This document shows, piece by piece, positions 29,724 to 60,295 of a DNA stretch of 64,000 bases. How positions within the stretch are numbered: position 1 is the stretch's first letter; the number at the start of each line of letters is the position of its first letter. The position numbers and the translations under genes are program-made. The notes under the pieces were generated by a model. That model was not told the origin of the DNA. It made no database searches and saw only the letters and a list, made by a program, of their open reading frames with translations. This stretch comes from an uncultured Acidobacteriaceae bacterium. Lineage in GTDB: Bacteria > Acidobacteriota > Terriglobia > Terriglobales > Acidobacteriaceae. Location: NCBI GenBank assembly GCA_963767045.1, contig CAVYCQ010000003.1, positions 658,238-722,237 of the forward strand. Reading direction: 5' to 3'.

Positions 29724-29891
29724 GGCAACCAGCTTACTTGAAGACTGCCGCAGGCGGCTTACTGGCGAGCAGCCGAACCGCCGCAAACGGTATCATGTCG
29801 TATGGGGGAATCCGCATTTCCCTGCATCCATTTGGCGGTTGCAGGGATCGAATGGGTTGCCGGCAGAAGATCGCATCAGCCAGGAGGTTTC

Positions 29892-30347
29892 ATGGCCCAA
29901 TACACAAAATCCGCGGACGCAATCTCTCATCTCTCGCGCGAGCAGTTTCGGGTAACCCAACAGAGTGCCACCGAACATCCCTTTGAGAATGCTTATTGGG
30001 ATCATGATGCCCCAGGCATTTACGTGGACATCGTTTCCGGCGAGCCGCTCTTCTCTTCCCTGGACAAATTTGACAGCGGCTGTGGCTGGCCTAGTTTCAC
30101 CAAACCCGTGGATCCGGAAAACGTGGAGGAGCGGTCTGATAACACGCTCGGCATGAGCCGGACTGAGGTGCGGTCAACCCACGCTGACAGCCACTTGGGT
30201 CACGTATTCGATGACGGGCCCAGGGATGCCGGCGGACTGCGTTACTGCATCAATTCGGCGTCCCTTCGCTTCATTCCCCTGGAAGAGATGGAAAACGAAG
30301 GTTACGGTGAATATCTCAAGCTATTCGAGTCCAAGAAGGAGAAATAG
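29892..30347 (+). CDS. msrB: peptide-methionine (R)-S-oxide reductase
   Basis: AGGAGG at 29882-29887. [26 protein letters not shown] and [18 protein letters not shown] blocks. Confidence 0.92.
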
Positions 30348-30927: not shown

Positions 30928-31033
30928 AAATCAGGTCTATCCTGCGCATACTCGAAGTCGATGGAACCTTGCGTTGCTCGATAGCGTATTAGGTGTCACT
31001 GGTAGCCAAGTACCTGTGCCGGGAGGCCTACGC

Positions 31034-33511
31034 ATGTCGATGTTTGTTGACCAACTCAAGCAGGTCCTGCGCAGACTCGGCCGGGCGCCGCTGTTTACCG
31101 CGATCACGCTGATTACGCTCGCCATCGGTGTGGGCGCAAACACGGTAATTTTTAGCGTCGTAGATGGTGTCCTGCTAAAGCCGCTTCCCTACCCCCATGC
31201 TGACCAATTGATTGGCGTCTGGCATTCTGCGCCGGGCATCGGCATCGCGGAACTGAATATGGCGCCGTCCATTTACTTTATCGATCGCGAGCAGAACACC
31301 ACGCTCCAGGATATTGGCGCCTACGATGGGGATTCACTGGACGTGACCGGCAATGGCAAACCCGAACACGTTCCAGGGCTCGACGTGACCGATGGCACAC
31401 TGCCTATCCTGGGCGTGGCACCGATGCTGGGGCGGTTATTTAACCGCAAAGACGATTCGGCGGGCTCTCCGCAAACCGTGGTGCTTTCCTATGGATATTG
31501 GCAACGGAAGTTTGGCGGCGCATCTTCTGTCATTGGGCGCTCGATTACCGTGGATGGAAAGCCGAGAGAAATCATCGGCGTCCTGCCCCAGCAATTCCAC
31601 TTCCTCGATCAACCGGATGTCTCGCTGTTCCTGCCTTTCCAATGGGATCGCAATAAAACCAAACTCGGCAATTTCAGTCAGCGCGGAGTTGCCCGCCTGA
31701 GGCCTGGAGTCACCATGGCCCAGGCAAGCACTGATATGGCACGGCTCCTTCCCGTGGTCTTGCGCAGCTTCCCAGCCCCGGACGGATTCAGCGCCAGCAT
31801 GTTTGAAAAAGTGCGGCTCGCGCCCAATCTCCGTCCACTCAAGCAAGATGTGGTCGGTAATGTGGGGAACGTGTTGTGGGTCCTGATGGGCTCGATCGTT
31901 CTGGTTTTGCTGGTTGCCTGCGCAAACGTCGCTAATCTTTTACTGGTCCGCGTCGAAGGCCGCCGTCAGGAGCTGGCGATTCGCTCTGCCCTGGGTGCGG
32001 GCTGGGGACGCATCGCGGCGGAGCTGCTCTTCGAGAGTGTCGTCCTGGGGGTGGCGGGCGGCCTGATCGGGCTGGCATTGGCCTACGGCGCACTGCGCGT
32101 TCTGGTGTCGATGGCGCCAACCGGCCTCCCCCGCGTCCACGAGATCGGCATCAATCTCCCAGTCCTGTTCTTCACTCTGGGGCTCAGCCTCTTTACCAGT
32201 CTGCTCATCGGCATCATCCCGATCCTCAAATATGCAGGCGCAAGGGCTACCAGCGGTCTGCGCGAAGGCGGCCGCGCGCTGAGCCAGAGCCGGGAACGGC
32301 ATCGCGCACGTCAGATCCTGGTGGTGGTGCAGGTCGCGCTGGCCCTGGTTCTGCTCATCTGCTCGGGGCTCATGGTCCGCACCTTTCGTGCCTTGATGCA
32401 TGTATCTCCCGGTTTCGTCGCACCCAACGCGGTGCAGACATTCCGTCTTTACATACCTGAAGCGCAGATACCAGACGATCAGCCGGAGCGCGTTGTGCGC
32501 ATGGACGAAGAGATTCTGCATCGGCTTGCCGCCATTCCAGGAGTTTCTTCCGTCAGCTTCTCCACCGCGGTGCCCATGGATGGGCGCAGCTCAAACGATG
32601 TTCTGTTTGCCCAGGACCATGTGTATGGCGAGGGTGAGCTGCCTCCGATACGCCGTTTCAAATTCATCTCGCCCGGATTTTTCGCAACCCTAGGCACGCC
32701 GGTCCTGGCTGGGCGCGATCTCACCTGGACCGACACCTACCAGAAGAGGCCGGTCGCCATCGTCTCTGAGAATCTCGCACGGCAGTATTGGCATGACCCC
32801 AATGGCGCGCTGGGCAAGAGGATTCGCGTAGCCAACACCGACGACTGGCGCGAGATCGTTGGGGTGGTTCAGGATGTGCATGACGACGGAGTGGACAAAG
32901 TAGCACCCAGCTCGGCGTATTGGCCCGTGATGCTCGACAATTTCGAAGGCCAAAAACAGACATTACACCGCGCGATTGCGTTCACCCTGCGTAGTCCGCG
33001 CGCCGGTTCTCGCAGTTTCATGAACGAGGTTCAGGAGCGAGTCTGGTCCGTCGATCCCGATGTGCCGCTGGCGGAGGTTTCCACGCTCGGCACGCTTTAT
33101 ACCAAATCCATGGCGCGCACTTCCTTTACCCTGGTGATGCTCTGTGTCGCGGGAAGCATGGCTCTGCTGCTCGGGATTGTCGGAATTTACGGTGTTATCT
33201 CGTATTCAGTATCGCAACGCACCCGCGAGATTGGCATTCGCATGGCATTGGGCGCTCAGCGGGAGATGCTGACGGCGATGTTTGTACGCCAGGGACTGCG
33301 GCTCACCCTCATCGGCGCAGCGTGTGGTCTCGTCACAGCCTTTGTTACCATGCGCCTGATGTCGTCGATCCTGTTCCATGTGAGCCCGGTAGATCCGCTC
33401 ACCTACGCCACCATTACTATCGGCGTCGTTGCCGTCGCTTATCTTGCCTGCTATTTGCCCTCCCGTCGCGCTGCGACCGTCGAACCAATGCATGCATTGA
33501 GAACCGAGTAG
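31034..33511 (+). CDS. ADOP-family MacB/FtsX-like permease, copy 3
   Basis: GGGAGG at 31021-31026. MSMFVDQLKQVLRRLGRAPLFTAITL.. Duplicated FtsX halves. C-terminal SRRAATVEPMHALRTE. Confidence 0.9.
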   Translation: MSMFVDQLKQVLRRLGRAPLFTAITLITLAIGVGANTVIFSVVDGVLLKPLPYPHADQLIGVWHSAPGIGIAELNMAPSIYFIDREQNTTLQDIGAYDGDSLDVTGNGKPEHVPGLDVTDGTLPILGVAPMLGRLFNRKDDSAGSPQTVVLSYGYWQRKFGGASSVIGRSITVDGKPREIIGVLPQQFHFLDQPDVSLFLPFQWDRNKTKLGNFSQRGVARLRPGVTMAQASTDMARLLPVVLRSFPAPDGFSASMFEKVRLAPNLRPLKQDVVGNVGNVLWVLMGSIVLVLLVACANVANLLLVRVEGRRQELAIRSALGAGWGRIAAELLFESVVLGVAGGLIGLALAYGALRVLVSMAPTGLPRVHEIGINLPVLFFTLGLSLFTSLLIGIIPILKYAGARATSGLREGGRALSQSRERHRARQILVVVQVALALVLLICSGLMVRTFRALMHVSPGFVAPNAVQTFRLYIPEAQIPDDQPERVVRMDEEILHRLAAIPGVSSVSFSTAVPMDGRSSNDVLFAQDHVYGEGELPPIRRFKFISPGFFATLGTPVLAGRDLTWTDTYQKRPVAIVSENLARQYWHDPNGALGKRIRVANTDDWREIVGVVQDVHDDGVDKVAPSSAYWPVMLDNFEGQKQTLHRAIAFTLRSPRAGSRSFMNEVQERVWSVDPDVPLAEVSTLGTLYTKSMARTSFTLVMLCVAGSMALLLGIVGIYGVISYSVSQRTREIGIRMALGAQREMLTAMFVRQGLRLTLIGAACGLVTAFVTMRLMSSILFHVSPVDPLTYATITIGVVAVAYLACYLPSRRAATVEPMHALRTE

Positions 33512-36565: not shown

Positions 36566-36737
36566 CAGCGCTCGACCCGCCTTTTTGTCATCCGAGCTCA
36601 TGCAAATAGCGCATATATGATGGGATGGTGTTCTTCGACCAGACCCCGCACGATATGGAACGAATACTCGGCTGACCCATCTCACCAGCCCACAACTGAA
36701 GTTGCATCCAGTCGCCACCATGCCGAAACAGAGGGGA

Positions 36738-39065
36738 ATGATGAAGTCTCGCGTCGGCATTCTGTTGATGGGGCTGGCTCTTCTGTGCGGCGCACTCCAT
36801 GCTCAGGCCGCAGACGCGAACAGGCACGTTTCCATTTGGATTATTTCGTCGGAGGGATCGGGTCCAAACGACATTGCTCAGGGAGCGGACCTACCGTCTC
36901 GCATGGAGGCCTTGCGGTTGTCGCTCGCGGGAACCCGCGTACGGTTGCTTAATGTGGAAGCTCCGTTGGCGGCGAAGACCGGCAGCTGGTTTCCCGAATA
37001 CACAGTTCCGAATTTTCAAGCGGTGGCAAATCAGCGAGGGACATTCGCGGCGCTGGCGCGTTTTGCGGCGCAGAACAATGCTGACGTCGTTTTGCGTGTG
37101 ATCACATGGCGCGAGGCAGCCGATCTGCTGCGCGCCGCGCACACGACTGGCCCCGATGCGTTGCCGGACGTGATGGAAGTTGGTACGACGTGGACGGGGA
37201 ATCTAGCTGCGAGCGGTAGAATCCGATCCCGCCCGGATTGGCAAAAGAGCAGGGGAAAGTGGCGGGACGTGCTGAATGTCCCAGCCTGCGCGCTGCCGCT
37301 GATTACCGATGTCCGCCTTCTTTTCTACTGGAAGCGATTGCCTTCTGCTGCGCCTGACTCGCCTGCGCTGTCTCTCAATAACGCTAGTTGGCCGGCTATC
37401 CTCGACTCTCTCCGTAGCGGAACGTCTTCCGGTGAAACAATTACGCTCCCAACCGGGAACTCCCTTAACCTGCTTTACGATTACGTTTCGCTGGTCATGG
37501 CCGGCGGAAGCCAGTCCATTCTTCATGAGGATCTGTTCGGTTCTCGTCTGTCTCTCTCCAGCCAGAGCGCACTTTCCGTCCCGGTCTATCTTGCCGAACA
37601 CTCCTCGGTTCCTCTCGGTAAGGGTGAAGCTCGTCAGTTGGTCAGCTTTCCCGAAGCTACCCATGAAGAAGCAATGCGTGACTTCGTAAACGGCGGTTAT
37701 CGGGCAACCTTGGAACCCGCCAGTTTTATGACCCGATGGGCCTACGATTTCTACGGGCGGCCGCAAGAGAAGGACAAGGCGAAACGATTTTGGGATTACG
37801 CGGCGGCCGTAGTACCCCCGGGAGGTTTTAAAGGTGGCGGCGAACTCGTAGTTCTGAGCACGAAACCAGATCCCGAATTGGCTTTCAAGCTGGCTGACGC
37901 TCTGGCAACCGACCCGGAATATACGGAAAGGCTGGGCCAAGCCGGCTTCCTGGCCTCCGGCAAACCTGATTATGGGACAGACGCGTTGGTCGCATCCGTC
38001 ATCAAGGATGAGCGGGACGTTCAAGACGCACGCCTTTTCGGTGAAACCGTCCGCCAGGCTATCGACCAGGGGCATAGATACCCGGACTTCGCAGGATGGA
38101 CGGCGGTCATCGAGGATCCCGCCGTGATGGAAAAGCTTCAACGGGTTTGGCGCCGTATGGCGGAAGGGGACGTACCCGGCGTGCGCCAGGCCGCCAAAGA
38201 GGTCGACTGGGCGGTCAATTCCCGGATATATCCACCCGCACGGGCACTCAATGGGGTCATCCAGTCATGGCGACTCATTGCTGTTGTTCTTTCTCTGACA
38301 GCTTTTCTGGTGCTGCTGGGAGGGCTCCATCGACTGCGGCTGCGTCAGTTGGAGCAGCAGTTCAACATGCGCCTGGAAGAGCGTATCAACGAGCGGACTC
38401 GCATCGCGCGGGATTTGCACGATACGCTACTGCAAAGTTTTCACGGACTTTTGCTGCGATTTCAGGCGGCGACGTATCTTCTGCCAGAACGGCCAGAGGA
38501 AGCGCAGAAAACACTGGAGAGCGCGCTTGATCGGGCAGAGGAAGCGATTGCCGAGGGGCGTGATGCGGTGCGTGGTTTGCGCTCATCGACGGTCTTGACC
38601 AACGACCTTGCCGCGGCGATCAACACATCGGGCGCAGAACTCGCGACCGGTGAAACCAACCCACATCATGCGGTTTTTCATGTCAGGGTTGAAGGCGCGT
38701 CGCGCGACCTGAATCCGATATCGCGAGACGAAGTGTTTCGGATTGCCGTCGAGGCCATGCGCAACGCATTCAAGCACGCAGAGGCGCAGCGGATCGAAGT
38801 GGAAATTCAGTATCTCGAACGGCAATTCCGATTGCGGGTGCGAGATGATGGAAAGGGCGTTGACGAAAAGTTCGTGAACCAAGAAGGGGGCCGAGGACAC
38901 TACGGCATGCGCGGTATGCGGGAGCGCGCCAAACTCTTGGGTGGCAAGCTGACGGTGCGAAGTGAACCCGATGCGGGCACGGAACTGGAGCTGAGTATTC
39001 CTGCCGCGAATGCTTATGCGACGCCTGAGAGTGGGAAGCACCCGGCAGCTGAGAAAACCCGATAA
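36738..39065 (+). CDS. sensor histidine kinase (HisKA_3 + HATPase_c) with periplasmic solute-binding-protein-like sensor domain
   Basis: ATG 36738/36741 after GAGGGG. Signal/TM segment, then an extracytoplasmic domain of about 470 aa resembling sugar SBPs. TM segment WRLIAVVLSLTAFLVLLGGL. RIARDLHDTLLQ (HisKA_3 H-box). GHYGMRGMRERA..GG.L (G-boxes). Confidence 0.85.
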   Translation: MMKSRVGILLMGLALLCGALHAQAADANRHVSIWIISSEGSGPNDIAQGADLPSRMEALRLSLAGTRVRLLNVEAPLAAKTGSWFPEYTVPNFQAVANQRGTFAALARFAAQNNADVVLRVITWREAADLLRAAHTTGPDALPDVMEVGTTWTGNLAASGRIRSRPDWQKSRGKWRDVLNVPACALPLITDVRLLFYWKRLPSAAPDSPALSLNNASWPAILDSLRSGTSSGETITLPTGNSLNLLYDYVSLVMAGGSQSILHEDLFGSRLSLSSQSALSVPVYLAEHSSVPLGKGEARQLVSFPEATHEEAMRDFVNGGYRATLEPASFMTRWAYDFYGRPQEKDKAKRFWDYAAAVVPPGGFKGGGELVVLSTKPDPELAFKLADALATDPEYTERLGQAGFLASGKPDYGTDALVASVIKDERDVQDARLFGETVRQAIDQGHRYPDFAGWTAVIEDPAVMEKLQRVWRRMAEGDVPGVRQAAKEVDWAVNSRIYPPARALNGVIQSWRLIAVVLSLTAFLVLLGGLHRLRLRQLEQQFNMRLEERINERTRIARDLHDTLLQSFHGLLLRFQAATYLLPERPEEAQKTLESALDRAEEAIAEGRDAVRGLRSSTVLTNDLAAAINTSGAELATGETNPHHAVFHVRVEGASRDLNPISRDEVFRIAVEAMRNAFKHAEAQRIEVEIQYLERQFRLRVRDDGKGVDEKFVNQEGGRGHYGMRGMRERAKLLGGKLTVRSEPDAGTELELSIPAANAYATPESGKHPAAEKTR

Positions 39066-39068
39066 TTT

Positions 39069-39163
39069 TGGCGGAAGTGCGTGCGAGTCGAACACACCGT
39101 CGCCCGTTAAGAACGACCACCGGTTTTGAAGACCGGGAGGATCACCGGAACCTAAGCACTTCC
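39069..39163 (-). tRNA. selC: tRNA-Sec (anticodon UCA)
   Basis: The reverse complement reads GGAAGTGC-TT-AGGTTC-CGGT-GATCCT-C-CCGGT-CTTCAAA-ACCGG-TG-GTCGTTC-TTAAC-GGGCGAC-G-GTGTG-TTCGACT-CGCAC-GCACTTCC-G-CCA. It is 95 nt, with an 8-bp acceptor, a 6-bp D stem (1 mismatch) with a 4-nt loop, a UCA anticodon, a 7-bp extra arm, a 5-bp T stem and an encoded CCA. This is the bacterial 8/5 tRNA-Sec architecture. Confidence 0.9.
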
Positions 39164-39195
39164 CTCGCCTGACCGGCATTCGAAGATTAGTGGTA

Positions 39196-39248
39196 TCCCA
39201 CTCAAGCCAAAACCGGGCTTGCATGGGGCACCCAGCCTTCGTTGCTGG
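39196..39248 (+). repeat. intergenic repeat family A, copy 2
   Basis: TCCCACTCAAGCC (39196-39208) / AAAACCG / GGCTTGCATGGGG (39216-39228), then CACCCAGCCTTCGTTGCTGG. Lies between selC and selD. Confidence 0.6.
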
Positions 39249-39282
39249 TAGCCTATTATCCTAACCGACGAGGAGTGATCGA

Positions 39283-40350
39283 TTGGCCGCTTCCACAGCA
39301 ATAAGACTGACCCAGCAGGTCAAAGCCGGCGGATGCGCGAGCAAACTGCCGCCAGGATTGCTGGCAGCAGTGCTTTCCAAGCTGCCGCGGCAGACGGATG
39401 CCAATCTTTTGGTTGGCTTCGATACCTCCGATGACGCCGGGGTTTATCGCATCGCACCGAACCTGGCCCTGGTGCAGACTGTGGACTTCTTTACCCCGCT
39501 GGTGGATGACCCCTATACCTTCGGCCAGATTGCGGCCACCAATGCGCTCAGTGACGTGTATGCCATGGGGGGACGGCCGGTTACTGCCCTCTCCGTCGTG
39601 TGTTTTCCCCAGGACGGGGACCTGAAGGTTCTTGAGGCGATTATGTGCGGGGGCATGGCGAAACTTGCCGAAGCGTCCTGCGTGGTCCTGGGTGGCCATA
39701 GCGTGCGCGATCAGGAGATCAAGTTTGGCTACGCGGTGACGGGGCTCATCGATCCCGATCGTGTGCTGACTAATGCGGGCGCGCAACAGGGCGACGATCT
39801 CATACTTACCAAGCCCATCGGCACAGGAGTGATTACGACTGCGCTGAAACAAGGAAAGGCCGAGCCGGCCTGGGTGGCGGAGGCAATCCGCTCCATGACC
39901 ACGCTCAACCGTTTGCCGTCGGAAGTGGTGACAGGCGCGGAGGGTGTTCACGCCATGACGGACGTAACCGGCTTTGGCCTGATGGGGCATGCTCGTGAGC
40001 TCGCCATCGGGAGCGGCATGCGTATTGAGATTTTTGTCGAGCAGGTGCCGCGGATAGAAGGCGCGCTCGATGCCATTGAACGGGGGGCTATTCCCGCCGG
40101 CCTGCTTGCCAATCGCGAGTTTGCCGAATGCGTAAGCGCGGATGCACCCGGGGCTGCGATTGCGGACGAGGTGCGCGCCCTGCTGTATGACCCGCAAACC
40201 GCAGGCGGTCTGCTGGTTTCCGTTGCGGCCGGCGGCTCCCACGCATTGTTGCAGGCTCTGAACGCTGCAGGTGTAGCCGCAGCCAGGATTGGCAGCGTGC
40301 TCGGCCCCTATGCCGCGGGCTCGGGCGAGCCGGCGATTCTGCTGCGATAA
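39283..40350 (+). CDS. selD: selenide, water dikinase (selenophosphate synthetase), Cys-type
   Basis: TTG 39283 with GAGGAG at 39270-39275. RLTQQVKAGGCASKL (Cys as TGC, plus Lys). DDAGVY, DFFTP.VDDPY.FG.IAA.NALSD..AMGG and GGHS blocks. Confidence 0.93.
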   Translation: MAASTAIRLTQQVKAGGCASKLPPGLLAAVLSKLPRQTDANLLVGFDTSDDAGVYRIAPNLALVQTVDFFTPLVDDPYTFGQIAATNALSDVYAMGGRPVTALSVVCFPQDGDLKVLEAIMCGGMAKLAEASCVVLGGHSVRDQEIKFGYAVTGLIDPDRVLTNAGAQQGDDLILTKPIGTGVITTALKQGKAEPAWVAEAIRSMTTLNRLPSEVVTGAEGVHAMTDVTGFGLMGHARELAIGSGMRIEIFVEQVPRIEGALDAIERGAIPAGLLANREFAECVSADAPGAAIADEVRALLYDPQTAGGLLVSVAAGGSHALLQALNAAGVAAARIGSVLGPYAAGSGEPAILLR

Positions 40351-40377
40351 ACAGAATCCAGACAGACTGGCAAGCTC

Positions 40378-41832
40378 ATGAAACCGAAGCAACCGGTGAC
40401 CGATCACAGCGAGGGCAATCTATACCGGCTGATTCCCTCTCTGCATGAGCTATTGCTGACGCCGGGATTTGCTGCACTGCTCGAGACCCACTCTCGCGAC
40501 TCGGCGACGTCTGCGGTGCGCGCCGTGCTGGCACGCCTCAAGCAGGAGATTGCAGAAGGCCATCACACCCAGGCAAGCCTGGAACGCGAGCTGGCATTGC
40601 TGCACATCACGGTTGCCGGCGAAATCGCCGAGGGTGCGCGCTACAGCTTGCAGCGCGTAATCAACGCCACCGGGGTGGTTCTGCATACAAATCTCGGGCG
40701 CGCTCCGTTGAGCCTCGCCGCACTGGCACACGTTGTCGAGACCGCGTGCGGATACTCAAACCTGGAACTCGATCTTGAATCGGGCGAGCGCAGCCGCCGC
40801 GATGTTCACGCGGAGGAACTTCTGCTGCGCGTTGTGGCGGCGCAGGGGGCAGCGGCCCTGGTCGTCAATAACTGTGCAGCAGCCACGTTTCTCGCCCTCA
40901 ACACGCTCGCGGAGGGTGGCGAGGTGATTGTCTCCCGCGGGGAGTTGGTGGAGATCGGCGGAGGGTTCCGCATCCCTGAGATTCTTGCTAAGTCCGGCGC
41001 CATGCTGCGTGAGGTGGGCACCACCAACCGCACCCGGCTGGCCGATTACGAAAATGCAATCTCACCCGCCACGCGGCTTATTTTGCGGGTGCACCAATCT
41101 AACTTCTCGATGGAAGGCTTCGTCGAACGACCCACGTTGCGCGACCTGGTTTCTCTTGGGATGCGCGCCAATCTGCCTGTATTTCACGATCAGGGAACCG
41201 GCTTGCTTGGCTCGCTCGAACTGCTCGGCATCGGCTCTGAGCCCACTTTGCCAGATAGCTTCCACATGGGTCCTGATCTGATTGCCGCCAGCGGTGACAA
41301 GCTGCTCGGCGGTCCACAATGCGGCTTGCTCATCGGGCGTACGGAGCTAGTGCAGCGCATCCGCAAGAATCCTCTGTACCGCACCTATCGTGTCGACAAG
41401 CTTACCTACGCGGCACTCGAAGCAACTCTCATGGACCACGTTGCGCAGAAAGATTCGAGCATCCCAGTGCAGAGAATGTTGAACATGGCAGCGGAAGAAG
41501 TATTCGCACGCTGTGAGCGGATCAGCCGCCAGGTCAACTCCGCCGAACTCGCCGCGCAGGCCGTACCGGTGGAGAGCCTGATCGGGGGCGGCACGGCGCC
41601 CACGGCCCGGCTGCAGAGCGCCGCAGTTTCTCTTCGTCACGCGCTGCTACAACCACAGGCACTGCTGCTGGCTCTTCGCCGGCTTGAGCCGCCGGTGGTG
41701 GGCCGCATCCACGAAGAGCAGGTCTTGCTCGATCTGCGCACTGTCGAACCGGAATTCGACGCAACCTTGGCCGAGTTACTGCAGCGGATTGACACTGGCT
41801 TGGTCACTGCGCAAAAGGCCGCGCACCAGTGA
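40378..41832 (+). CDS. selA: L-seryl-tRNA(Sec) selenium transferase
   Basis: LIPSLHELL.., VINATGVVLHTNLGRAP, NNCAAA and SGDKLLGGPQCGL (PLP lysine) blocks. Confidence 0.93.
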   Translation: MKPKQPVTDHSEGNLYRLIPSLHELLLTPGFAALLETHSRDSATSAVRAVLARLKQEIAEGHHTQASLERELALLHITVAGEIAEGARYSLQRVINATGVVLHTNLGRAPLSLAALAHVVETACGYSNLELDLESGERSRRDVHAEELLLRVVAAQGAAALVVNNCAAATFLALNTLAEGGEVIVSRGELVEIGGGFRIPEILAKSGAMLREVGTTNRTRLADYENAISPATRLILRVHQSNFSMEGFVERPTLRDLVSLGMRANLPVFHDQGTGLLGSLELLGIGSEPTLPDSFHMGPDLIAASGDKLLGGPQCGLLIGRTELVQRIRKNPLYRTYRVDKLTYAALEATLMDHVAQKDSSIPVQRMLNMAAEEVFARCERISRQVNSAELAAQAVPVESLIGGGTAPTARLQSAAVSLRHALLQPQALLLALRRLEPPVVGRIHEEQVLLDLRTVEPEFDATLAELLQRIDTGLVTAQKAAHQ

Positions 41833-41863
41833 CGCGAGCTGCGACGCATGGTTCAGCGTTAGC

Positions 41864-43759
41864 ATGACGCAACCGGTCAAGTCCGTAGTGATCGGCACCG
41901 CGGGTCATATCGATCACGGCAAGACTGCGTTAGTGCGGGCTCTTACGGGCATCGATGCAGATCGCTTGCCGGAAGAAAAGCGGCGCGGCATCACCATCGA
42001 TCTTGGCTTCGCCTTTCTCGAGGCTGTGTCTTCCTCTGGACGCCCACTCAGAATCAGCTTCGTCGATGTGCCCGGCCACAGCCTATTCATTCACAACATG
42101 CTCGCCGGGGCTGGATGCATCGGAGCCGTGATGCTGGTGATCTCCGCGCAGGAGGGTGTGAAACCACAAACCGTGGAGCATCTCGCTATTTGTAGCCTGC
42201 TTGGCGTGCGCACCGGCCTAACAGTGATTACCAAGATCGATACCGTTAGCCCCGCCCGTGCCGCACAAGTGGAGCTGGAGGTGAAGGAATTCCTTGGTGG
42301 AAGTTTTCTCGGCGATGGGCGTGCAGAGATTCTCGGGGTAAGCGCAATCACGGGGCAAGACATAGACCCGCTGCGGCGAAAGCTTATCGGGCTTGCCGAG
42401 GAGGCGCGCGACAGCGATCTCGATCACCTGCCCAGGCTCCCCATAGACCGCGCGTTCGTGATGAAGGGATTTGGCACCGTGGTTACGGGCACCCTGCTCT
42501 CAGGCAGTTTCCGTGCGGGACAATCGCTCACCCTGGAGCCGGGAGGACGTTCTGTGCGCGTGCGCGGAATGCAGAGCCATGGGCGCGCGGAAGATCTGGC
42601 TCTTTCCGGCTCGCGCGTTGCCTTGAACCTCTCAGGTGTTGAGGTGTCGGAAGTGAGCCGGGGGCAGACACTGGTTGCTCCTGAGACACTCACCGCTGTT
42701 ACTTCGATCGACGTGGAAGCCTGGTTGCTGCCTGGATCTTCGGCGCTGAAGCATGGCGCGGTGGTTCATTTCCACGCGTTTACCTCGAACGTCCTGGCCA
42801 CAGCACTGCTATATGGCCGCAGCAGGTTCGAGGCAGGCGCGAACAGGCTGCTCCGGATCAAACTCCAGACCCCTATCCTGCTCACCACCGGCGATCCATT
42901 CGTGCTGCGACAGGTTTCACCACCGGCGACCATTGGGGGTGGACGGGTGTTGGATGCGCACCCCGTGGCAAAACTGCGCAAAGCAGAAGTTATGGCGTGG
43001 CTGGAATCTTTGCAAAGCGCCCCGGAAGGAGAACGGCTTTTCCTTCGGGTAGCGCGCCGCGGCACAAAAGGGCTTACACTCCAGCGTCTGATGGCAGAAA
43101 CCGGCCTGGCCCGCGAAGCCGCCGAGCGCCGGCTGCAGCCCCTTATCCTAAGCCATCGTTTGCTGCAGATACCGGGCGAGCTTCTCTTTGCCGGAGCGGC
43201 CCTCGATGCAGCCTGCAAAAGTATTGGCAGAGTCTTACAACAGCACGTGAGCGGTCTCAAGCGATCCGAGCTCAGAAGCCGGACCTCGCTCACTCCGGAG
43301 GTTCTCGATTTTTCGCTCCAACGGCTTGCCGGCTCGCAGGAGATCCGGCTAAAAGGCGAGCTGGTCTATCCCGCGGGAGCCGGCACTCCTCCGTCCGCTC
43401 CTGAAGATGCAAAGCTTTCCACGATCGCGGCCGTCTACCGCAAGGCTGGGCTGTCTGCTCCCTTGATCTCTGAAGTAGCGGCCACGCTGAAGTGCAAGGA
43501 GAGCGAATTGCGTGCGCTGATCACATTGCTGCTGCGGGAAAAGATCCTCGTGCCGATGGGAAGCGAGAATCTGCTGATGCACCATGAAGCGCTCGATCAA
43601 CTACGCGCCACGATAAGCGAACTTCGCGGCCAGACTATCGATGTAGGCCGCTTCAAACAGATAACCGGCTTGTCTAGAAAGTACGCCATCCCCTTGTTGG
43701 AGTATCTCGATCGGCAAAGGATTACGCGTAAAATAGGCGATCAGCGCCTGGTGATCTAG
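41864..43759 (+). CDS. selB: selenocysteine-specific translation elongation factor
   Basis: VIGTAGHIDHGKTALV..LTG...DRL.EEK.RGITIDLGFA and DVPGH GTPase motifs. C-terminal winged-helix region ends ..AIPLLEYLDRQRITRKIGDQRLV. ATG 41864 lies inside a longer track ORF. Confidence 0.93.
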   Translation: MTQPVKSVVIGTAGHIDHGKTALVRALTGIDADRLPEEKRRGITIDLGFAFLEAVSSSGRPLRISFVDVPGHSLFIHNMLAGAGCIGAVMLVISAQEGVKPQTVEHLAICSLLGVRTGLTVITKIDTVSPARAAQVELEVKEFLGGSFLGDGRAEILGVSAITGQDIDPLRRKLIGLAEEARDSDLDHLPRLPIDRAFVMKGFGTVVTGTLLSGSFRAGQSLTLEPGGRSVRVRGMQSHGRAEDLALSGSRVALNLSGVEVSEVSRGQTLVAPETLTAVTSIDVEAWLLPGSSALKHGAVVHFHAFTSNVLATALLYGRSRFEAGANRLLRIKLQTPILLTTGDPFVLRQVSPPATIGGGRVLDAHPVAKLRKAEVMAWLESLQSAPEGERLFLRVARRGTKGLTLQRLMAETGLAREAAERRLQPLILSHRLLQIPGELLFAGAALDAACKSIGRVLQQHVSGLKRSELRSRTSLTPEVLDFSLQRLAGSQEIRLKGELVYPAGAGTPPSAPEDAKLSTIAAVYRKAGLSAPLISEVAATLKCKESELRALITLLLREKILVPMGSENLLMHHEALDQLRATISELRGQTIDVGRFKQITGLSRKYAIPLLEYLDRQRITRKIGDQRLVI

Positions 43760-43760
43760 C

Positions 43761-44372
43761 ATGGATTGTGCTAATCTTTGGCTCGGAACCATGACGGACC
43801 CTGAGAAGAAAATCGATCTGATCGAGGATGCTGACGCGACGGGCGAGGTAGCGCAGGTCTATGACGAATGGCGCGCCCATTCGGGCCGCCAGCAGATGCC
43901 CGGCATTCTCAAGTGCTTTAGCCATCGCCCTGATTTCCTGCGCGAAGTCATGAGCTTCAGCAACACCGTCCATTTTTCTGAAGGGCACCTCACGCGCAGG
44001 ACCAAGGAAGCGATCGCCAGTTGGGTCTCTTGGCTCAATCGCTGTCCCTATTGACTGGATTCGCATGCTTACTTCCTGCGGGTTCAGGGAGCAGAAGAAC
44101 AAACAGTCCAGGCGCTGGCGGAGGGCAAGCTCGACGAGGCAGCACTCGACGACGCGCACCGTGCGCTGCTGGAGTATGTCACTAAGGTGACCGAGGCGGC
44201 GTATCGCACCACCCCGGAAGATGTGCAAAAACTGCGTCAACATGGTTGGAGCGAGCCTCAAATTGCGGAAGCCGTATACATCACTGCGCTATTTGCCTTT
44301 TTCAATCGCGTGGCGGACGCCTTCGGTATTGCGCCGCAGGGCTATCTTGAAATGAACCAGATGACTAAGTGA
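43761..44372 (+). CDS. AhpD/carboxymuconolactone-decarboxylase-family selenoprotein (TGA 44052..44054 read as Sec; motif C-P-Y-U-L-D-S-H)
   Basis: Track ORFs 43761..44054 and 44187..44372 share a frame, and the 132 nt between them has no further stop. The junction WLNRCPYULDSHAYF aligns with the AhpD core C-x-x-C-x-x-x-H. SECIS-like hairpin at 44072..44091. Lies immediately 3' of selB. Alternative start ATG 43791. Confidence 0.8.
44072..44091 (+). promoter_or_regulatory. candidate bacterial SECIS hairpin for the AhpD-like gene
   Basis: CUUCCUG (44072-44078) pairs with CAGGGAG (44085-44091), with one G-U pair. Loop CGGGUU (44079-44084) begins 24 nt after the UGA. Confidence 0.55.
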
Positions 44373-44420
44373 ATGGGAAACATTGAAGTTGGCGCAGCGC
44401 GTGGCTTGCCGGGACCCTGG

Positions 44421-44490
44421 TGACTGGACGGGTGCCCCAGGTTCGCGCCAGCGTACCTGGGGAGAAAGTGGTTTTTTCGATTGCTTTCAC
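44421..44490 (-). repeat. intergenic repeat family B, partial inverted copy 4; in the plus sense it looks like a terminator
   Basis: Stem CCCCAGGT (44435-44442) / ACCTGGGG (44455-44462) with a 12-nt loop. In the plus sense it is followed by GTTTTTTC (44470-44477). The core GGACGGGTGCCCC is the reverse complement of the family core. Confidence 0.55.
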
Positions 44491-44520
44491 TCGTTCCAAC
44501 CGCGACTTGTTCGATAGGAT

Positions 44521-44599
44521 AAGAGCTTTCGAAGGGCTTCGCCCGTCTTATTCTTACCAGGTACGCCTTGGCGAACCTGGGGCACCCGCCCAGTTTCTC
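44521..44599 (+). repeat. intergenic repeat family B, copy 3
   Basis: AAGAGCTTTCGAAGGGCTTCGCCCGTCTTATTCTTA, then stem CCAGGT (44557-44562) / ACCTGG (44575-44580), then GGGGCACCCGCCCAGTTTC. Confidence 0.6.
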
Positions 44600-44731
44600 T
44601 CACGCGTAACCTCTCCAGACGGGATGACAATGGGAACCTCCACCTTTCGGTGGATGCGGCCCTCCGCCCGGTCGCGATAGTGTTCCAGGTATGCGCTGGT
44701 TTGCCGAGGAGCCGGGATTAGGTAGGATTGC

Positions 44732-45985
44732 ATGGTGATTGCCACCGAAGTCCGCACGAAGAGAAGACTACGTAATTTGGTTCCGGGGGCGGGCCTGCTG
44801 TTGGCAGCACTTGCTACTTTGGCACTTGCGCTTTATCCCATCTACGTCATACGGCCCTTCGTAGAGCAAAAGCCGGCGGACCTTGCGCGCGCCCTTTGGG
44901 TTCAGCTGCACGACAAGGTAATCTTGTTTGCGCTTTTTTTCCTGATCACGCTGTGTGGGCTTTTTCTCTGGCGGCGTGCGGGCTGGGTGGTGCGACTTCT
45001 GCTGGTGGGGCCGGCCATGGCGATTGCTCTGATCGCTGTCGGCGCGGCATTTTTCAATCCCTACGAACAGCTCATGTTTCATCCGTTCGGAGAGCCGCAC
45101 TACGTGGCTATTCAGCAAGCCGGTATCGACGCTAAAGACATGGTCATCGCGGTCACCCTGGGCGGAGAGAGCCGCGCGTATCCCATCCGAGAAATGGGCT
45201 ATCACCACGTCGTAAATGATCGCCTTCATCAGCTGCCCATCGTCGTCACTTATTGAACGCTCTGCCACACGGGTCTGGTCTGGACCCGCACCATACAGGG
45301 GCGTGACTTGCACTTTCACCTGGCCGGCATCAACAATCAGAATTTCCTGATGCGCGACCAGGAGACAGGCAGCTTCTGGCAGCAGATCAACGGGACCGCG
45401 ATCGCCGGCCCGCTGAAAGGCTCAAAGCTCACGTTGGTTCCCCAGGATGAACTCACGTTCGGGTTGTGGAAGAAAGAACAACCGAACGGCACTGTGCTCG
45501 CTCCTCTGAGGCGCGATGCAGCCCACTATGAAAAAGCGACTTGGGAAAGTGAGATTGCAAAACTGCCGACTGTGATTCACGCGACCAAGGGGACACTTCC
45601 CGACCGGGAAACCATCCTGGGCGTGTCGTTGAACGGAGCCGCGCGTGCCTTTCCAGTGAGCAAGCTGACGCTACAGTCTCCGGTGCTGATCGATGACGTC
45701 GGAGAGAAGCCGATCATGCTCGTGCTTGGGCCAGATGGCAAATCGATCCGTGTCTTCTCGCGCCAGGTGGGTGCAAACGCGCTCGAGTTTTATGGCCGTG
45801 GCGGGGGAAACACTGGCGAGCCTTGGGTACTTCTGGACTCCAATACGCTCAGCGACTGGAGCTTCGAAGGGTGCGCGGTTTCTGGAGATTTCAAAGGACA
45901 GTGTCTGACACGGATCGATGCTCTGAAAGACTTCTGGTTCGATTGGCAGCACTACCATCCAGGCAGCAGTATCTATCGGCATTGA
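44732..45985 (+). CDS. membrane-anchored DUF3179-family protein, candidate selenoprotein (TGA 45254..45256 read as Sec; motif U-T-L-C)
   Basis: Track ORFs 44732..45256 and 45308..45985 share a frame, with 17 open codons between them. Junction HHVVNDRLHQLPIVVTY-U-TLCHTGLVW, versus the family pattern VND..G.PV.VTYCPLC.T. Downstream DUF3179 blocks LMRDQETGSFWQQ..G.AI.GPLKG and C-terminal DFWFDWQHYHPGSSIY. Three N-terminal TM helices. Hairpin at 45270..45288. Confidence 0.78.
45270..45288 (+). promoter_or_regulatory. candidate bacterial SECIS hairpin for the DUF3179 gene
   Basis: CGGGUCU (45270-45276) pairs with GGACCCG (45282-45288), 7 bp including one G-U pair. Apical loop GGUCU (45277-45281) begins 20 nt after the UGA. 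Confidence 0.55.
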
Positions 45986-46002
45986 AATAATAGGGCCAGG
46001 GC

Positions 46003-46602
46003 CTAATTGCTGCCCGGTGGGACCACACCATTCATTCGCAGATACTCCACCAATTGGCCGTAGTGGTCGTACCCGTGTGCCACGGCAAAGGCAGCGAGTG
46101 TGGCCGGTGTGTGAAATCCGTCGAGTCCCTCGATGCCGGTAAAGGCATTCTGCGGCGTGATCGTCAGGATCTGGGCGTGACCATAGGCAAAGCTCTCCTT
46201 GAGGGCCGCCAGAATTTCATCTTTCGTTTTCAGATCGCGCACCTGCTTCGCCGCCGCCGGCGGTGTTGCTCCATTCAGCAGGCTGTAGAAGTGATAATTC
46301 GCGCCGGCAATGTGCGTCAGCTGCTGGGCAAAGGTGCGAACCGTTCCAAACTTGACCGGCGTGCCAGGAGCAAATAGGGCTGTCGTGGGCGCGAAGCTGT
46401 ACTTATCCGCCGGCATCGCTTGAGCCACATTCATCACTTCGGTCTCTAACTGGGCCAGCATGACGTCCAGTGCTTTGGCCGGCGCCATGGTCTTGCCCGC
46501 ATCCGAAGCCGTGTACGTATCCTGGAAATCTCTCGCCTGTGCCGAACCGCTCGCTCCCGCCGCGATGAGCAAACCGATCACCAACCAATTTGAAACTCGC
46601 AT
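46003..46602 (-). CDS. secreted DinB-family (DinB_2-like four-helix bundle) protein
   Basis: Signal peptide MRVSNWLVIGLLIAAGASGSAQA. His-containing helices (LTHIAGANYHFY, AVAHGYDHYGQLVEYLR) typical of the DinB/YfiT superfamily. Confidence 0.7.
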   Translation of the reverse strand: MRVSNWLVIGLLIAAGASGSAQARDFQDTYTASDAGKTMAPAKALDVMLAQLETEVMNVAQAMPADKYSFAPTTALFAPGTPVKFGTVRTFAQQLTHIAGANYHFYSLLNGATPPAAAKQVRDLKTKDEILAALKESFAYGHAQILTITPQNAFTGIEGLDGFHTPATLAAFAVAHGYDHYGQLVEYLRMNGVVPPGSN

Positions 46603-46743: not shown

Positions 46744-46783
46744 ATGAGAGCAAAGGCGCCCACCGTCAAGTCAGGAGGTGACT

Positions 46784-49483
46784 ATGGACTGGATCCACAT
46801 TCTGCTTAGCCGGGGCGCAGCACTCTTCCGCCGCAGGAATCTGGACGCCGATCTGGATGAAGAGCTGCGCACGCACATTGAACTGGCCATTGAAGAAAAT
46901 CGCGCGCGGGGAATGAGTGCCTCGCAGGCACGCGACGCGGCTTTGCGCGCGTTTGGCGGCGTCACGCAGATCCGCGAGACCTACCGCCTTCAGCGGGGCC
47001 TGCCCTGGCTCGAAGAGGTCGCTCGCGACCTCCGCTATGCCGTTCGTCAACTGCGCAAGTCGCGCGGGTTCGCGCTCACTGCCATCCTTACCCTTGGGCT
47101 GGGCATCGGCGCCGCTACTTCGGTCTTCAGCGTGGTTAATGCCGTCTTGCTCAGGCCCTTCGCCTTTCGCGACCCGGGCCGCCTGGTGGTATTGCGCGAG
47201 GCGGTAGAAGACAAGGCGCCCAGCGAGCGAGAGTTAATCCCAGACAACTACCGGCATTTCCAGCGACTGAAAACAACCGCGGCGACCCTCGAAGACGCGG
47301 CGATCTTTGCTCAACAGGGAAAGAGCGTTTCTCCCAATGGAGATCATCCTCGCATCGTGGGCGCCGTGACCGCTTCGCCCAACATCTTTCGCCTGCTTGG
47401 GATTCAACCCATCCTGGGCCGGGACTTCGTCAGCGACGACGCGCGGCAAAATGCCGGAGGCGTCGTGATCCTGAGCTATGGCGGCTGGCAGACATTCTTT
47501 GCAGGCGACCCCGCGGTAATCGGCAAGACGCTGCGTATCGACGGCCATCCGATGACCGTCATCGGTGTGCTGCCGGCGGGTATGCGATTTCCGCAAATCG
47601 CATTGGCGCCAAAGATCGCTTTTCAGGAAACCGCCGGGGATGTTCTGCTCTTTGAGCCGCTGACGCCGAGCGAGTACGACCTGAATAAAGATATGGGCAA
47701 CTTCAACTACAAGGCGATCGCGCGCCTCAAGCCGGGTGTGACGTTGCCTCAGGCGAATACGGAACTGCAGACCCTGCAGAAGGCTTACACGCTTTCCGCG
47801 CATCTACCGCTTGATTTTGGCATTGCCCTCACGCCGCTGGAGAAGGATGTCGCGTCCGGGGTAAGCGGCGCGCTGTGGCTGCTGCTTGCGGCGGTGGGGG
47901 CAGTGCTGCTGATCGCGTGTGTGAATCTTGCCAATCTGCAACTCGCCCGCGCCGTCAATGCGGAACGGGAGACTGCCGTGCGCGCCGCACTGGGCGCCAG
48001 CCGCGGCCAACTGGTGAGGTCGCGCCTAGCCGAGAGCCTGGTGTTGGCACTCGCCGGCAGCGCAACCGGCACAGCGCTTGCCTTCGGCGGCGTACGGCTG
48101 TTGATCGCATGGGCGCCGGCGAATATCCCTCGTCTCGACGAGGTGCGGGTAAGCCTGCCTGTCCTCATTTTTAGCGCCGGTCTGTCGATTGCAGCAGCAA
48201 TCATGTTTGGTATCTTGCCTTTCCTGCACTCCCTTCGTGTTGCTCCGCAAACTGCGCTGCAAGCAAGGTCCACACGCGCGGCAGGCACGCAACGGAGCCG
48301 CCGCACGCGTAGCCTGATGGTGGCGGGGCAGGTAGCTTGCACCATGGTCCTGCTCATCGTTACCTCCCTGGTACTGCGTAGCCTCTCTCACCTTCTGGGG
48401 CAGGATCGCGGCTTCGACGCAAGCCATGTCACGATCGCGCAGGCCGACCTCTTCGCGTTGCAATACGACAACGCCAGTCCCAAGGGGAATACAGCCAGGT
48501 TGGCCTTTGCCGATAGGGCGCTCGCAGCCTTGAGTCAATTGCCTGGCGTGCAATCGGTCGCCCTCACCAGCGTGGCGCCGTTAGCCGGCGAAACCTGGGT
48601 GGATACTCTTTCGCGGCCGGATCATCCGGTGCCAGCCGGGAAGCAGCCGGCGATCAACGTGCGTTGGATTAATCCCGCATATCTGCTCACTATGCAAAGT
48701 CCCCTTGTCGCTGGGCGCAACATCGACCCGGCTGATCGCGCCAACCCCTATGTCGCGCTCATCTCAGAGAAAACGGCGCGCGAAGGCTTTCCTGGCGAGA
48801 ATCCCATCGGGCGAACGATTTCCGATATTGTTCCCGACGACCAACATGCTGTCACCGTCATCGGAGTCGTCGCCAATACGCGCATTAATGGGCTTAAGGA
48901 CGAGGCCGCCATGGTCTATCTCCCCTACTGGGCCTATACGCCGCTCACGTTATCGTTCCTGGTGCGCAGCTCGCAAACCAGCGAAGGGTTAATTCCCGAA
49001 TTGCGGCATGAGCTCTGGCAGATCGATCCCCAGGTGGCGATTCCAACGCTCAAGTCCATGGATGATCAGATCAGCAATTCCGTGGCAGGCGACCGTTTCC
49101 AAGCCACGATTCTGAGCAGTTTTGGCGTGGCGGCATTATTGCTGGCCTTACTCGGAGTGTATGGCGTGCTTGCGTACTCGGTCACGCTGCGCCAGCAGGA
49201 GTTCGGCATCCGCATCGCACTGGGATCCGGTAAGAGCGCTATGATCGCGCTGGTGATGCGGCAGGCTGCGTATCCCGTCCTCTTGGGCACAGGGATTGGA
49301 CTCATGATGACGACGATCGCACTGCGCTGGGTCCGCACTCTTCTCTATCAAACGCCCGTCATGGACCCGATCGCGATAGGCGGCAGCGTATTGCTGCTTC
49401 TGTTGGCCGCTACGATCGCAGCGATTGTGCCGGCCCGGCGCGCTGCAGCCACCGACCCGATGCAGGTATTGAAGATGGAGTAG
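46784..49483 (+). CDS. ADOP-family MacB/FtsX-like permease, copy 4 (long form with N-terminal cytoplasmic extension)
   Basis: AGGAGG at 46773-46778. MDWIHILLSRGAALFRRRNLDADLDEELRTHIE..FGGVTQIRE.. extension, then DLRYAVRQLRKSRGFAL. Duplicated FtsX halves. C-terminal ARRAAATDPMQVLKME. Confidence 0.9.
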   Translation: MDWIHILLSRGAALFRRRNLDADLDEELRTHIELAIEENRARGMSASQARDAALRAFGGVTQIRETYRLQRGLPWLEEVARDLRYAVRQLRKSRGFALTAILTLGLGIGAATSVFSVVNAVLLRPFAFRDPGRLVVLREAVEDKAPSERELIPDNYRHFQRLKTTAATLEDAAIFAQQGKSVSPNGDHPRIVGAVTASPNIFRLLGIQPILGRDFVSDDARQNAGGVVILSYGGWQTFFAGDPAVIGKTLRIDGHPMTVIGVLPAGMRFPQIALAPKIAFQETAGDVLLFEPLTPSEYDLNKDMGNFNYKAIARLKPGVTLPQANTELQTLQKAYTLSAHLPLDFGIALTPLEKDVASGVSGALWLLLAAVGAVLLIACVNLANLQLARAVNAERETAVRAALGASRGQLVRSRLAESLVLALAGSATGTALAFGGVRLLIAWAPANIPRLDEVRVSLPVLIFSAGLSIAAAIMFGILPFLHSLRVAPQTALQARSTRAAGTQRSRRTRSLMVAGQVACTMVLLIVTSLVLRSLSHLLGQDRGFDASHVTIAQADLFALQYDNASPKGNTARLAFADRALAALSQLPGVQSVALTSVAPLAGETWVDTLSRPDHPVPAGKQPAINVRWINPAYLLTMQSPLVAGRNIDPADRANPYVALISEKTAREGFPGENPIGRTISDIVPDDQHAVTVIGVVANTRINGLKDEAAMVYLPYWAYTPLTLSFLVRSSQTSEGLIPELRHELWQIDPQVAIPTLKSMDDQISNSVAGDRFQATILSSFGVAALLLALLGVYGVLAYSVTLRQQEFGIRIALGSGKSAMIALVMRQAAYPVLLGTGIGLMMTTIALRWVRTLLYQTPVMDPIAIGGSVLLLLLAATIAAIVPARRAAATDPMQVLKME

Positions 49484-60045: not shown

Positions 60046-60295
60046 TGCAGTCCTCGTGTATTGGATACTCTAAAACAACTCAGGTGCTGCCTCCGCCTGG
60101 AAATTAGCATTATCTTTCTTGCGTTCCGCGCGCCCCTGGGAGCCTGCCCAACAACAGAAAAATCAGGAAGGGTCAGACTGGCAAAATGCTAAGCCGCGCT
60201 TCGCTTTGCACTTGAGGTAAATACTTAAACTAAACATGGAGGTATGGGTTTCGAGATTATACTTCCCACACATCGAAATCGCTCCCGAGGTCCAC

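Follow-up and report, generated by a model that had tools for sequence, protein, structure and literature searches.

A selenocysteine-decoding locus and its two client genes in an uncultured Acidobacteriaceae bacterium

Why do genes for two unrelated proteins, each interrupted by an in-frame TGA codon, lie directly beside the genes that allow TGA to be read as selenocysteine (Sec)? The question is raised by a stretch of DNA from an uncultured Acidobacteriaceae bacterium (assembly GCA_963767045.1, contig CAVYCQ010000003.1, positions 658,238-722,237 of the forward strand), the full 64,000 nt of which are called the window below. The gene order is tRNA-Sec on the minus strand, selD, selA, selB, an AhpD-like gene with an in-frame TGA, a repeat pair, a DUF3179 gene with an in-frame TGA and a convergent minus-strand gene for a secreted DinB protein. 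A sequence-only reading of the window had set out this order with coordinates for the sel genes, the two TGA-containing genes, the repeat pair and DinB, all of which have been borne out. It had also seen no formate dehydrogenase gene, and a tblastn search across the 64-kb window indeed gave no FdhA homolog; deiodinase-like homologs are likewise absent from it. The answer favoured here is that this is likely a sel locus with two client genes, held together by a shared dependence on Sec and not as steps of one pathway. Co-transcription, biochemical roles and membrane topology are matters that we infer throughout.

The machinery and the two TGA-containing genes

The bacterial Sec-decoding set of selC, selD, selA and selB is complete at the locus. 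The tRNA-Sec gene selC (39069-39163, minus strand), divergent from selD, has the anticodon UCA according to ARAGORN and scores 72.7 bits against Rfam RF01852 (gathering score 47). It is followed on the plus strand by selD, for selenophosphate synthetase (39283-40350; TIGR00476, 369 bits versus a cut-off of 125, with AIRS and AIRS_C domains), by selA, for selenocysteine synthase (40378-41832; TIGR00474, 503 bits versus 268; PF03841, 409 bits), and by selB, for the Sec-specific elongation factor (41864-43759; TIGR00475, 355 bits versus 242). SelB ends in the winged helix that binds the Sec insertion sequence (SECIS), matching PF09107 (SelB-wing_3) with 66.6 bits. The window SelD is the Cys form, AGGCASK being read directly in its sequence, and selD orthologs that are 65-93% identical occupy the same position in relatives. 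Selenophosphate is the product of SelD, SelA turns Ser-tRNA(Sec) into Sec-tRNA(Sec) and SelB brings this charged tRNA to UGA.

The first client gene, AhpD-like (TIGR01926/CMD), extends on the plus strand from 43761 or, more likely, 43791 to 44372. It thus begins 1-31 nt after selB, and the two are probably co-transcribed. Its TGA (44052-44054) lies within NRCPY*LDSH, and translation through it yields the motif C-P-Y-U-x-x-x-H. With U replaced by C, the protein scores 102.1 bits against TIGR01926 (cut-off 81.8). The JGI gene calls read this TGA as Trp and start at MTDP. The CPY* of the window aligns with the CPYC, CHYC or CAYC of Cys forms (P0170, P0198, P0202, P0224 and P0234), those that read CPYC being 62-66% identical to the window protein, and also with the CxYC of AhpD-core relatives in the PDB (2prr, 2pfx and 6k40). 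The product would be a cytoplasmic CMD-fold protein in which Sec replaces the second Cys of a CxxC-x3-H centre. A cytoplasmic location had been thought probable in the sequence-only reading, and the N-terminus is in keeping with it in having no hydrophobic stretch. With Sec there, it is probably a selenol/thiol oxidoreductase of raised reactivity that reduces peroxides or disulfides. In other genomes AhpD-like paralogs stand in tandem after an amino-acid permease gene, with no sel genes within 6 kb (L083:6001-7229 and L084:6001-7217). There the first paralog is a Cys form (CHYC/CPYC) and the second a Sec form, LNRCPY*LDSHAYFLRAQGA, which public calls split into two small open reading frames (ORFs).

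The second client gene, DUF3179 (PF11376), occupies 44732-45985 of the plus strand. Translated through its TGA (45254-45256, within VTY*TLCH) and with C in place of U, it matches PF11376 with 205.8 bits (gathering score 27) over profile positions 9-291 of 292. The motif of the window protein is H-H-x-V-N-D ... T-Y-U-T-L-C-H-T-G. In 24 full-length Cys forms, 40-46% identical, TYCTLCHTG is invariant and Cys stands at the Sec column. The nearest public entries are 230-aa fragments that start just past the TGA, and one Cys-form homolog from Acidobacteriaceae (P0072, 44% identical) carries the NCBI name 'DUF3179 domain-containing (seleno)protein'. With 8,848 representatives at E<=0.001 this is a large family, and of 128 family representatives 123, 121, 121 and 122 have the signature residues H155, D160, C172 and C175, respectively. 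Most likely this H...D...CxxC centre, which is UxxC here, is redox-active or metal-binding. One more specific possibility, a c-type haem site (CXXCH) at C-T-L-C-H, was rejected, as the next residue is H in only 23 of the 128 representatives (R in 48, N in 19).

How is the DUF3179 protein placed in the cell? An AlphaFold2 (AF2) model of the Cys homolog P0019 (pLDDT 92) consists of three N-terminal transmembrane (TM) helices and a beta-rich domain. By analogy the window protein would be membrane-anchored through three TM helices, with the beta-rich domain probably in the periplasm. This is in line with the TM-anchored, probably outward-facing protein of the sequence-only reading: the three helices are predicted by the model, the charge distribution mildly favours an outward domain and a C-terminal Cys pair, conserved in this subfamily, is consistent with one. 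In one relative a partial second copy of the gene (C-terminal half, 74% identical) lies ~1.9 kb downstream of the full-length gene (L004:16895-17502).

What argues that both TGA codons encode Sec? A SelB scan of species-representative genomes gave 80 Acidobacteriota loci, and a metagenome scan with a DUF3179 alignment gave 80 more. TGA is retained at all 40 orthologous or paralogous AhpD-like sites recovered and at all 98 DUF3179 sites recovered from genomes and metagenomes, with frames open on both sides. Each codon is followed by a SECIS-type hairpin on the plus strand. The one in the AhpD-like gene (44072-44091; RNA fold CUUCCUG / CGGGUU / CAGGGAG) has its stem 21 nt from the U of UGA, and the one in the DUF3179 gene (45270-45288; CGGGUCU / GGUCU / GGACCCG) has its stem 17 nt from it. 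SelB would deliver Sec-tRNA(Sec) at the two UGA codons by binding these hairpins.

The fold energies of the two hairpins are unremarkable on their own (z = -1.3 and -0.7). The AhpD-like stem is unchanged in 31 unique sequences, with variation confined to loop positions, and because it never varies it offers no covariation. As no stem varies within a clade, the SECIS test was made on synonymous-site entropy instead. Synonymous-codon entropy at the AhpD-like hairpin is 0.27 versus 1.20 elsewhere, the lowest window of the gene, and at the DUF3179 hairpin it is 0.00 versus 1.02, the most constrained window of that gene. Orthologs of the DUF3179 hairpin show one U-A to U-G change, and in a diverged DUF3179 clade the stem is replaced (CACACC/GGUGUG) and shifted by 5 nt with the loop GGUCU unchanged. 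GGUCU is similar to the loop at the apex of the E. coli fdhF SECIS. Retention of the TGA, alignment with Cys forms and constrained hairpins together uphold the earlier claim of a Sec machinery with two genuine selenoprotein genes, one CxxU and one UxxC. A crude screen of the window for other TGA-interrupted coding regions found a Cys context only at the two known sites.

Client genes at the sel loci of relatives

Is the arrangement peculiar to the window? At 50 of the 80 genome loci selA adjoins selB, or the contig is short and of that type; these were counted one per species and their client genes were tallied within 10 kb. The other 30, from more distant Terriglobia, have selB alone. The placement and orientation of selC seen in the window, divergent and ~2.7 kb upstream of selB, recur at nearly all of the 50. 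At least one TGA-containing selenoprotein gene is present at 46 of them. By our own estimate chance alone would give about 1% for a genome of ~6 Mb with 2-4 such genes, and the clustering of clients at sel loci is far beyond chance. The neighbourhood of selB is thus conserved in sel-positive relatives.

The identity of the clients is another matter. Sec-form AhpD-like genes are found at 33 of the 50 loci, 9-140 nt after selB in most and 379-518 nt after it in three. Sec-form DUF3179 genes are found at 19, either downstream, downstream and inverted, or on the opposite strand upstream of selC; their linkage to the sel locus persists despite this change of position. A deiodinase-like gene (FGSYT*PPF) is present at 14, directly after AhpD-like or after selB, and Sec-FdhA at 11, on either side of the cluster. 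The combinations are AhpD-like with DUF3179 (15 loci), FdhA (10), AhpD-like with the deiodinase-like gene (8), AhpD-like alone (6), all three of AhpD-like, DUF3179 and deiodinase-like (3), deiodinase-like alone (2), DUF3179 alone (1), AhpD-like with deiodinase-like and FdhA (1) and none (4). AhpD-like and DUF3179 are both present at 18 of 50 loci. Changing sets of four unrelated families at one locus indicate that the sel locus gathers Sec-dependent genes, not one specific pair. AhpD-like proteins are 74-94% identical across relatives where SelB is only 50-88% identical, and remain so at loci with SelB down to 50-63%.

The two client families that are missing from the window deserve a brief description. 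The deiodinase-like selenoprotein has the fuller motif FGSYT*PPFRR, with the TGA kept in all 14 species. Twelve of its genes are at ~12.5-13.3 kb in 22-kb loci (L012, L015, L016, L018, L020, L026, L031, L033, L039, L042, L044 and L075), and the further two are L022:2660-3358 and L023:3558-4250. Sec-FdhA (NQARI*HS or NVART*HGP) is accompanied by FdhB beside the same core (L011, L019, L025, L027, L030, L038, L040, L041, L055, L056 and L075). It mostly takes the place of AhpD-like and DUF3179, and L075 has AhpD-like as well as FdhA. The cultured Occallatibacter riparius has a selenoproteome of AhpD-like, deiodinase-like and FdhA proteins (deep-Sep paper, PMC12013277 Data S1). These families bear on the suggestion, made in the sequence-only reading, that the two clients of the window may be the main reason for which the organism keeps Sec: relatives can have further selenoproteins, at times alongside AhpD-like, as L075 and O. 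riparius do.

Two variants of the core were also seen. L001 and L041 are contigs of one metagenome-assembled genome (MAG), CAWGDP01 (MFD02248.bin.1.195), and each has a complete selC-selD-selA-selB cluster. SelB of L001 is 88% identical to that of the window and stands with AhpD-like, DUF3179 and DinB; SelB of L041 is 50% identical and stands with FdhA and FdhB. Either there are two Sec systems in one genome or the bin is contaminated. At L013, L037 and L049 the cluster has no selD, and selC is directly upstream of selA, ~1.6-1.7 kb before selB. These are nanopore-type MAG loci, several of which give frameshifted tblastn pieces.

The co-location of the clients with the sel genes would then stem from their shared dependence on the Sec machinery, by way of co-inheritance and possibly co-expression. 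Several observations do not fit this explanation comfortably. Four of the 50 related sel loci are free of client genes within 10 kb, and Sec forms of both AhpD-like and DUF3179 genes are also found away from sel genes, so the linkage is a tendency of the lineage and not a rule. Within the window, the spacer between the two client genes is 359 nt long and contains a terminator-like hairpin (44577-44593), from which it can be argued that DUF3179 is transcribed separately from selB and AhpD-like. A scan of the window for sigma-70 promoters and terminators was uninformative apart from this hairpin. Lastly, the picture of the DUF3179 protein itself meets resistance: the positive-inside bias behind its topology is weak, a Foldseek comparison of the AF2 model of P0019 with the PDB returned nothing significant (best E-value 0.04) and a profile search found no match among PDB sequences.

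The terminator-like hairpin belongs to an inverted pair of a ~45-nt palindromic unit (44423-44594), which a repeat search resolves into 44-nt arms at 44423-44466 and 44551-44594 that are 84% complementary. The pair folds with a z-score of -4.2. The unit, CCCAGGTACGCyTTGGCGAACCTGGGGCACCCGyCCAGTT, is also found at unrelated sites in two relatives (L001:19319-19344 and L003:5627-5652), which marks it as a dispersed element similar to repetitive extragenic palindromes or miniature inverted-repeat transposable elements (REP/MITE-like). A conserved regulatory role for the pair was rejected on the same ground, and the exact pattern is not present in the AhpD-DUF3179 spacers of relatives. The repeat pair, like the DinB gene, would be a local addition.

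Other readings of the cluster

Could the DUF3179 protein be something other than a thiol/selenol oxidoreductase? It may be a periplasmic protein that binds or handles a metal, with Sec/Cys175, Cys178 and the His and Asp as ligands, and it would then be at the sel locus only through its need for Sec. The conservation of H155, D160, C172 and C175, each above 94% in the 128 representatives, would suit ligands well. In addition, a MerR-family regulator adjoins one Cys form, there is a weak Foldseek likeness to the Rieske-type ferredoxin 3gce (probability 0.85, target-normalised TM-score 0.51), and review tables hold several metal-related UxxC selenoprotein families (PMC9312934, PMC13188914). However, the Foldseek E-values are those already described as not significant, the query-normalised TM-scores are ~0.15, no sequence relative exists in the PDB and only one of three Cys-form loci has metal-related neighbours. 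We regard this reading as unlikely.

Another idea goes further than shared dependence and makes the locus a 'selenoprotein hub'. It has four parts. AhpD-like, DUF3179, deiodinase-like and FdhA genes would have been recruited repeatedly beside selB; in much of the family the Sec trait would be maintained by AhpD-like as the anchor client, and not by FdhA or SelD; the clients other than FdhA would form a co-expressed, Se-dependent redox-defence set of cytoplasm and envelope; and DUF3179 would be a new kind of periplasm-facing UxxC enzyme. That all four parts hold jointly seems to us improbable.

What if the whole block from selC to DinB is a mobile or recently transferred island that carries the Sec trait together with its clients? 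The window shares the block with its three closest relatives, L001-L003, while the outer flanks differ: the histidine kinase gene upstream is common only to L002, and the MacB-type gene downstream to none of the three. It has also been argued that transfer of the Sec trait requires a co-transferred selenoprotein gene (Zhang et al., 2006; PMC1794560), and one MAG holds the two sel clusters of L001 and L041. This last point loses force if the bin is contaminated. Against an island, there is no anomaly of GC content or skew across 30-56 kb, and nothing recognisable as an integrase, a transposase or an attachment-site tRNA turned up, with flank ORFs of the relatives read at their N-termini only. 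The sole repeat is the small REP-like unit inside the block. The selC-selD-selA-selB core is present throughout Acidobacteriaceae with identity that slides from 88% to 50%, which fits vertical descent with local rearrangement. An island is quite unlikely.

The sequence-only reading had combined the cytoplasmic CxxU AhpD-like protein and the outward UxxC DUF3179 protein into a selenol/thiol relay, with the secreted DinB protein as a third, thiol-dependent component. Both partners do have two-residue redox-type motifs, and the 18 related species with both genes at the sel locus speak for a partnership. However, of the 33 species with AhpD-like(Sec) at the sel locus, 15 have no DUF3179 there. A diverged clade of Sec-DUF3179 genes (L115-L166, 49 metagenome loci, 43-50% identical to the window protein) has no AhpD-like, sel or DinB neighbour, and several DUF3179 loci of the closer clade have flanks of at least 5 kb that are free of sel genes. 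Upstream of the diverged genes, large pilin-like proteins are a recurrent feature, encoded at up to 30 of the 49 loci; downstream, 32 loci have a gene for a HAD-like hydrolase.

The Cys forms tell a similar story. Neighbourhoods were looked up for five proteins at six loci. Ahead of one Cys-form DUF3179 gene lie a Redoxin/AhpC-TSA gene and a gene for a MerR regulator, which speaks for a relay. However, Cys-form DUF3179 genes (P0027, P0075 and P0062) have no CMD neighbour and Cys-form AhpD-like genes (P0224 and P0198) no DUF3179 neighbour; the latter are found behind an amino-acid permease gene and have a Sec-form paralog in tandem. A relay across the membrane of the DsbD/CcdA type was also considered and rejected. 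The DUF3179 TM helices have a mean of ~1 Cys each, at no fixed position, and none of the invariant or near-invariant TM-region columns of alignments A1 and A2 is a Cys; a DsbD/CcdA-like electron route between cytoplasmic and periplasmic partners is therefore lacking.

DinB fares no better as a third component. Its gene (46003-46602, minus strand, convergent with DUF3179) encodes a DinB_2-family protein (PF12867, 40.5 bits versus 24.8; DinB model, 30.9 versus 23) with an N-terminus that reads as a signal peptide (MRVSNWLVIGLLIAAGASGSAQA/RD) and with His residues visible in THIAG and HGYDHYG; no PDB sequence relatives were found at E<=0.01. In favour of a link, DinB travels with the block in the window and L001-L003, as their differing outer flanks indicate. 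Another secreted DinB-like gene, 28% identical, lies directly after AhpD-like on the same strand at L034:12682-13245 and L054 (~12829-13239). Against it, DinB orthologs (84-85%) are restricted to L001-L003, the closest three relatives, and the window has a second DinB_2 gene (60236-60829, plus strand; PF12867, 50 bits) 14 kb from the first, so DinB genes appear to be common in this genome. We see DinB as a neighbour, confined to the closest clade, that probably has no functional part in the cluster. With its pair so often separated and its third member so local, the relay is very unlikely. The same sel locus hosts FdhA and deiodinase-like genes equally, and a shared dependence on Sec therefore fits better than a single pathway.

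That both TGA codons are ordinary stops, in genes that are split, decaying or wrongly sequenced and that encode no selenoproteins, is effectively refuted: public callers do truncate at the TGA and the nearest DUF3179 entries are those 230-aa fragments, but the codon stands at 40 and 98 independent sites with intact flanking frames, the Cys forms of both families have Cys at this column, the SECIS hairpins are synonymously constrained, the full Sec machinery is adjacent and both families have already been curated as selenoproteins.

Around the cluster, a histidine kinase gene (36702-39065, plus strand; HisKA_3/HATPase_c) stops 4 nt short of selC. Its product has a periplasmic solute-binding-protein domain at the N-terminus, and the gene is the one that, among relatives, only L002 shares with the window. 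A stretch of 23 kb includes three paralogous MacB_PCD/FtsX-type permease genes (26416-28857, minus strand; 30974-33511, plus strand; 46778-49483, plus strand), one of which directly flanks the DinB gene. A divergent pair at 28884-30347, 9 kb upstream of the sel locus, consists of a tandem-rhodanese sulfurtransferase gene (minus strand) and a gene for an MsrB (SelR-domain) methionine sulfoxide reductase (plus strand), the latter an uninterrupted ORF that is taken as a Cys form.

Comparison with known systems

The locus opens no new mechanism, and the cluster is largely ordinary. Its value is that of a clean example of the Sec machinery and clients other than formate dehydrogenase travelling together. 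It is also a caution, as public gene calls for both clients are systematically truncated or have the TGA misread as Trp. The four-family client set across ~50 soil Acidobacteriaceae species could guide the choice of a culturable strain (Occallatibacter, Silvibacterium). How does it compare with what is already known?

AhpD of M. tuberculosis is a CxxC alkylhydroperoxidase that re-reduces AhpC, and its second Cys is nucleophilic. It shares with the AhpD-like protein the CMD fold core and the C-x-x-C-x-x-x-H centre. Alignment to the AhpD-core structures 2prr, 2pfx and 6k40 puts Sec at the second Cys position, the nucleophilic one. However, the window protein is not a true AhpD: it scores only 21.5 bits against TIGR00777, well below the cut-off of 192, and no ahpC gene was recognised among the scanned window genes (26.4-63.4 kb).

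A closer match is the AhpD-like selenoprotein family (TIGR01926/COG2128, CxxU), which reportedly came out of the Sargasso Sea 2005 and Global Ocean Sampling (GOS) 2008 surveys. The window protein shares with it an HMM score above the cut-off, the CxxU motif, a His at +4 and a SECIS hairpin past the UGA; nothing essential differs. The O. riparius member (...LNRCPYULDSHAYFLRVQGAEE..., PMC12013277 Data S1) is 79% identical to the window protein. The setting is what varies: the window copy lies 1-31 nt past selB, and elsewhere, at L083 and L084, an amino-acid permease gene precedes a tandem of a Cys and a Sec paralog.

The DUF3179 family (UxxC/T) is said to go back to a 2007 study of the Olavius algarvensis symbionts, which we take to be reference 63/60 of the review tables; the link to 'OS_HP1' of that study we infer from table order. 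The window protein is similar to the catalogued members in its Pfam membership, in Sec at the first position of CxxC and in a downstream SECIS. A reference member, MDJ0986319.1, is only 25% identical to it and reads TFUPLTQTG, whereas the window subfamily has three N-terminal TM helices, TYUTLCHTG and the conserved C-terminal Cys pair. Both families, AhpD-like and DUF3179, are listed as selenoproteins in two reviews (PMC9312934, PMC13188914).

Selenoprotein operons that serve one pathway are also known, namely grdA-grdB, prdB-prdC and also frhA-frhD-hdrA (PMC13188914, section 'Selenoprotein operon'). What they have in common with the window is a pair of adjacent selenoprotein genes that share a strand. 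However, the partners in operons of the grdAB/prdBC type co-occur as a pathway, whereas here the families separate and a 359-nt spacer with repeats lies between them. An operon of this type was rejected for the window in view of the 15 sel loci that have AhpD-like without DUF3179, the 49 Sec-DUF3179 loci without AhpD-like and the Cys-form loci without a partner.

A further precedent is the sel operon flanked by fdhA, in which the Sec trait travels with a selenoprotein gene (Zhang, Romero, Salinas and Gladyshev, 2006, Genome Biol 7:R94; PMC1794560). Here too the Sec-decoding genes are clustered with a client directly beside them, trait and client being inherited or transferred together, and FdhA-type versions of this very Acidobacteriaceae locus exist (L011 through L056 in the list of FdhA-bearing loci above). 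The differences are that the clients in the window are AhpD-like and DUF3179 and not FdhA, that selD is within the cluster, that selC is divergent upstream and that the Acidobacteriaceae locus can have as many as three clients, from a set of four unrelated families across species. No description of such a multi-family client set at an Acidobacteria sel locus was found in the literature. The two client families of the window are already known as selenoproteins, and the variable client set is an extension of the known pattern of a sel operon with fdhA.

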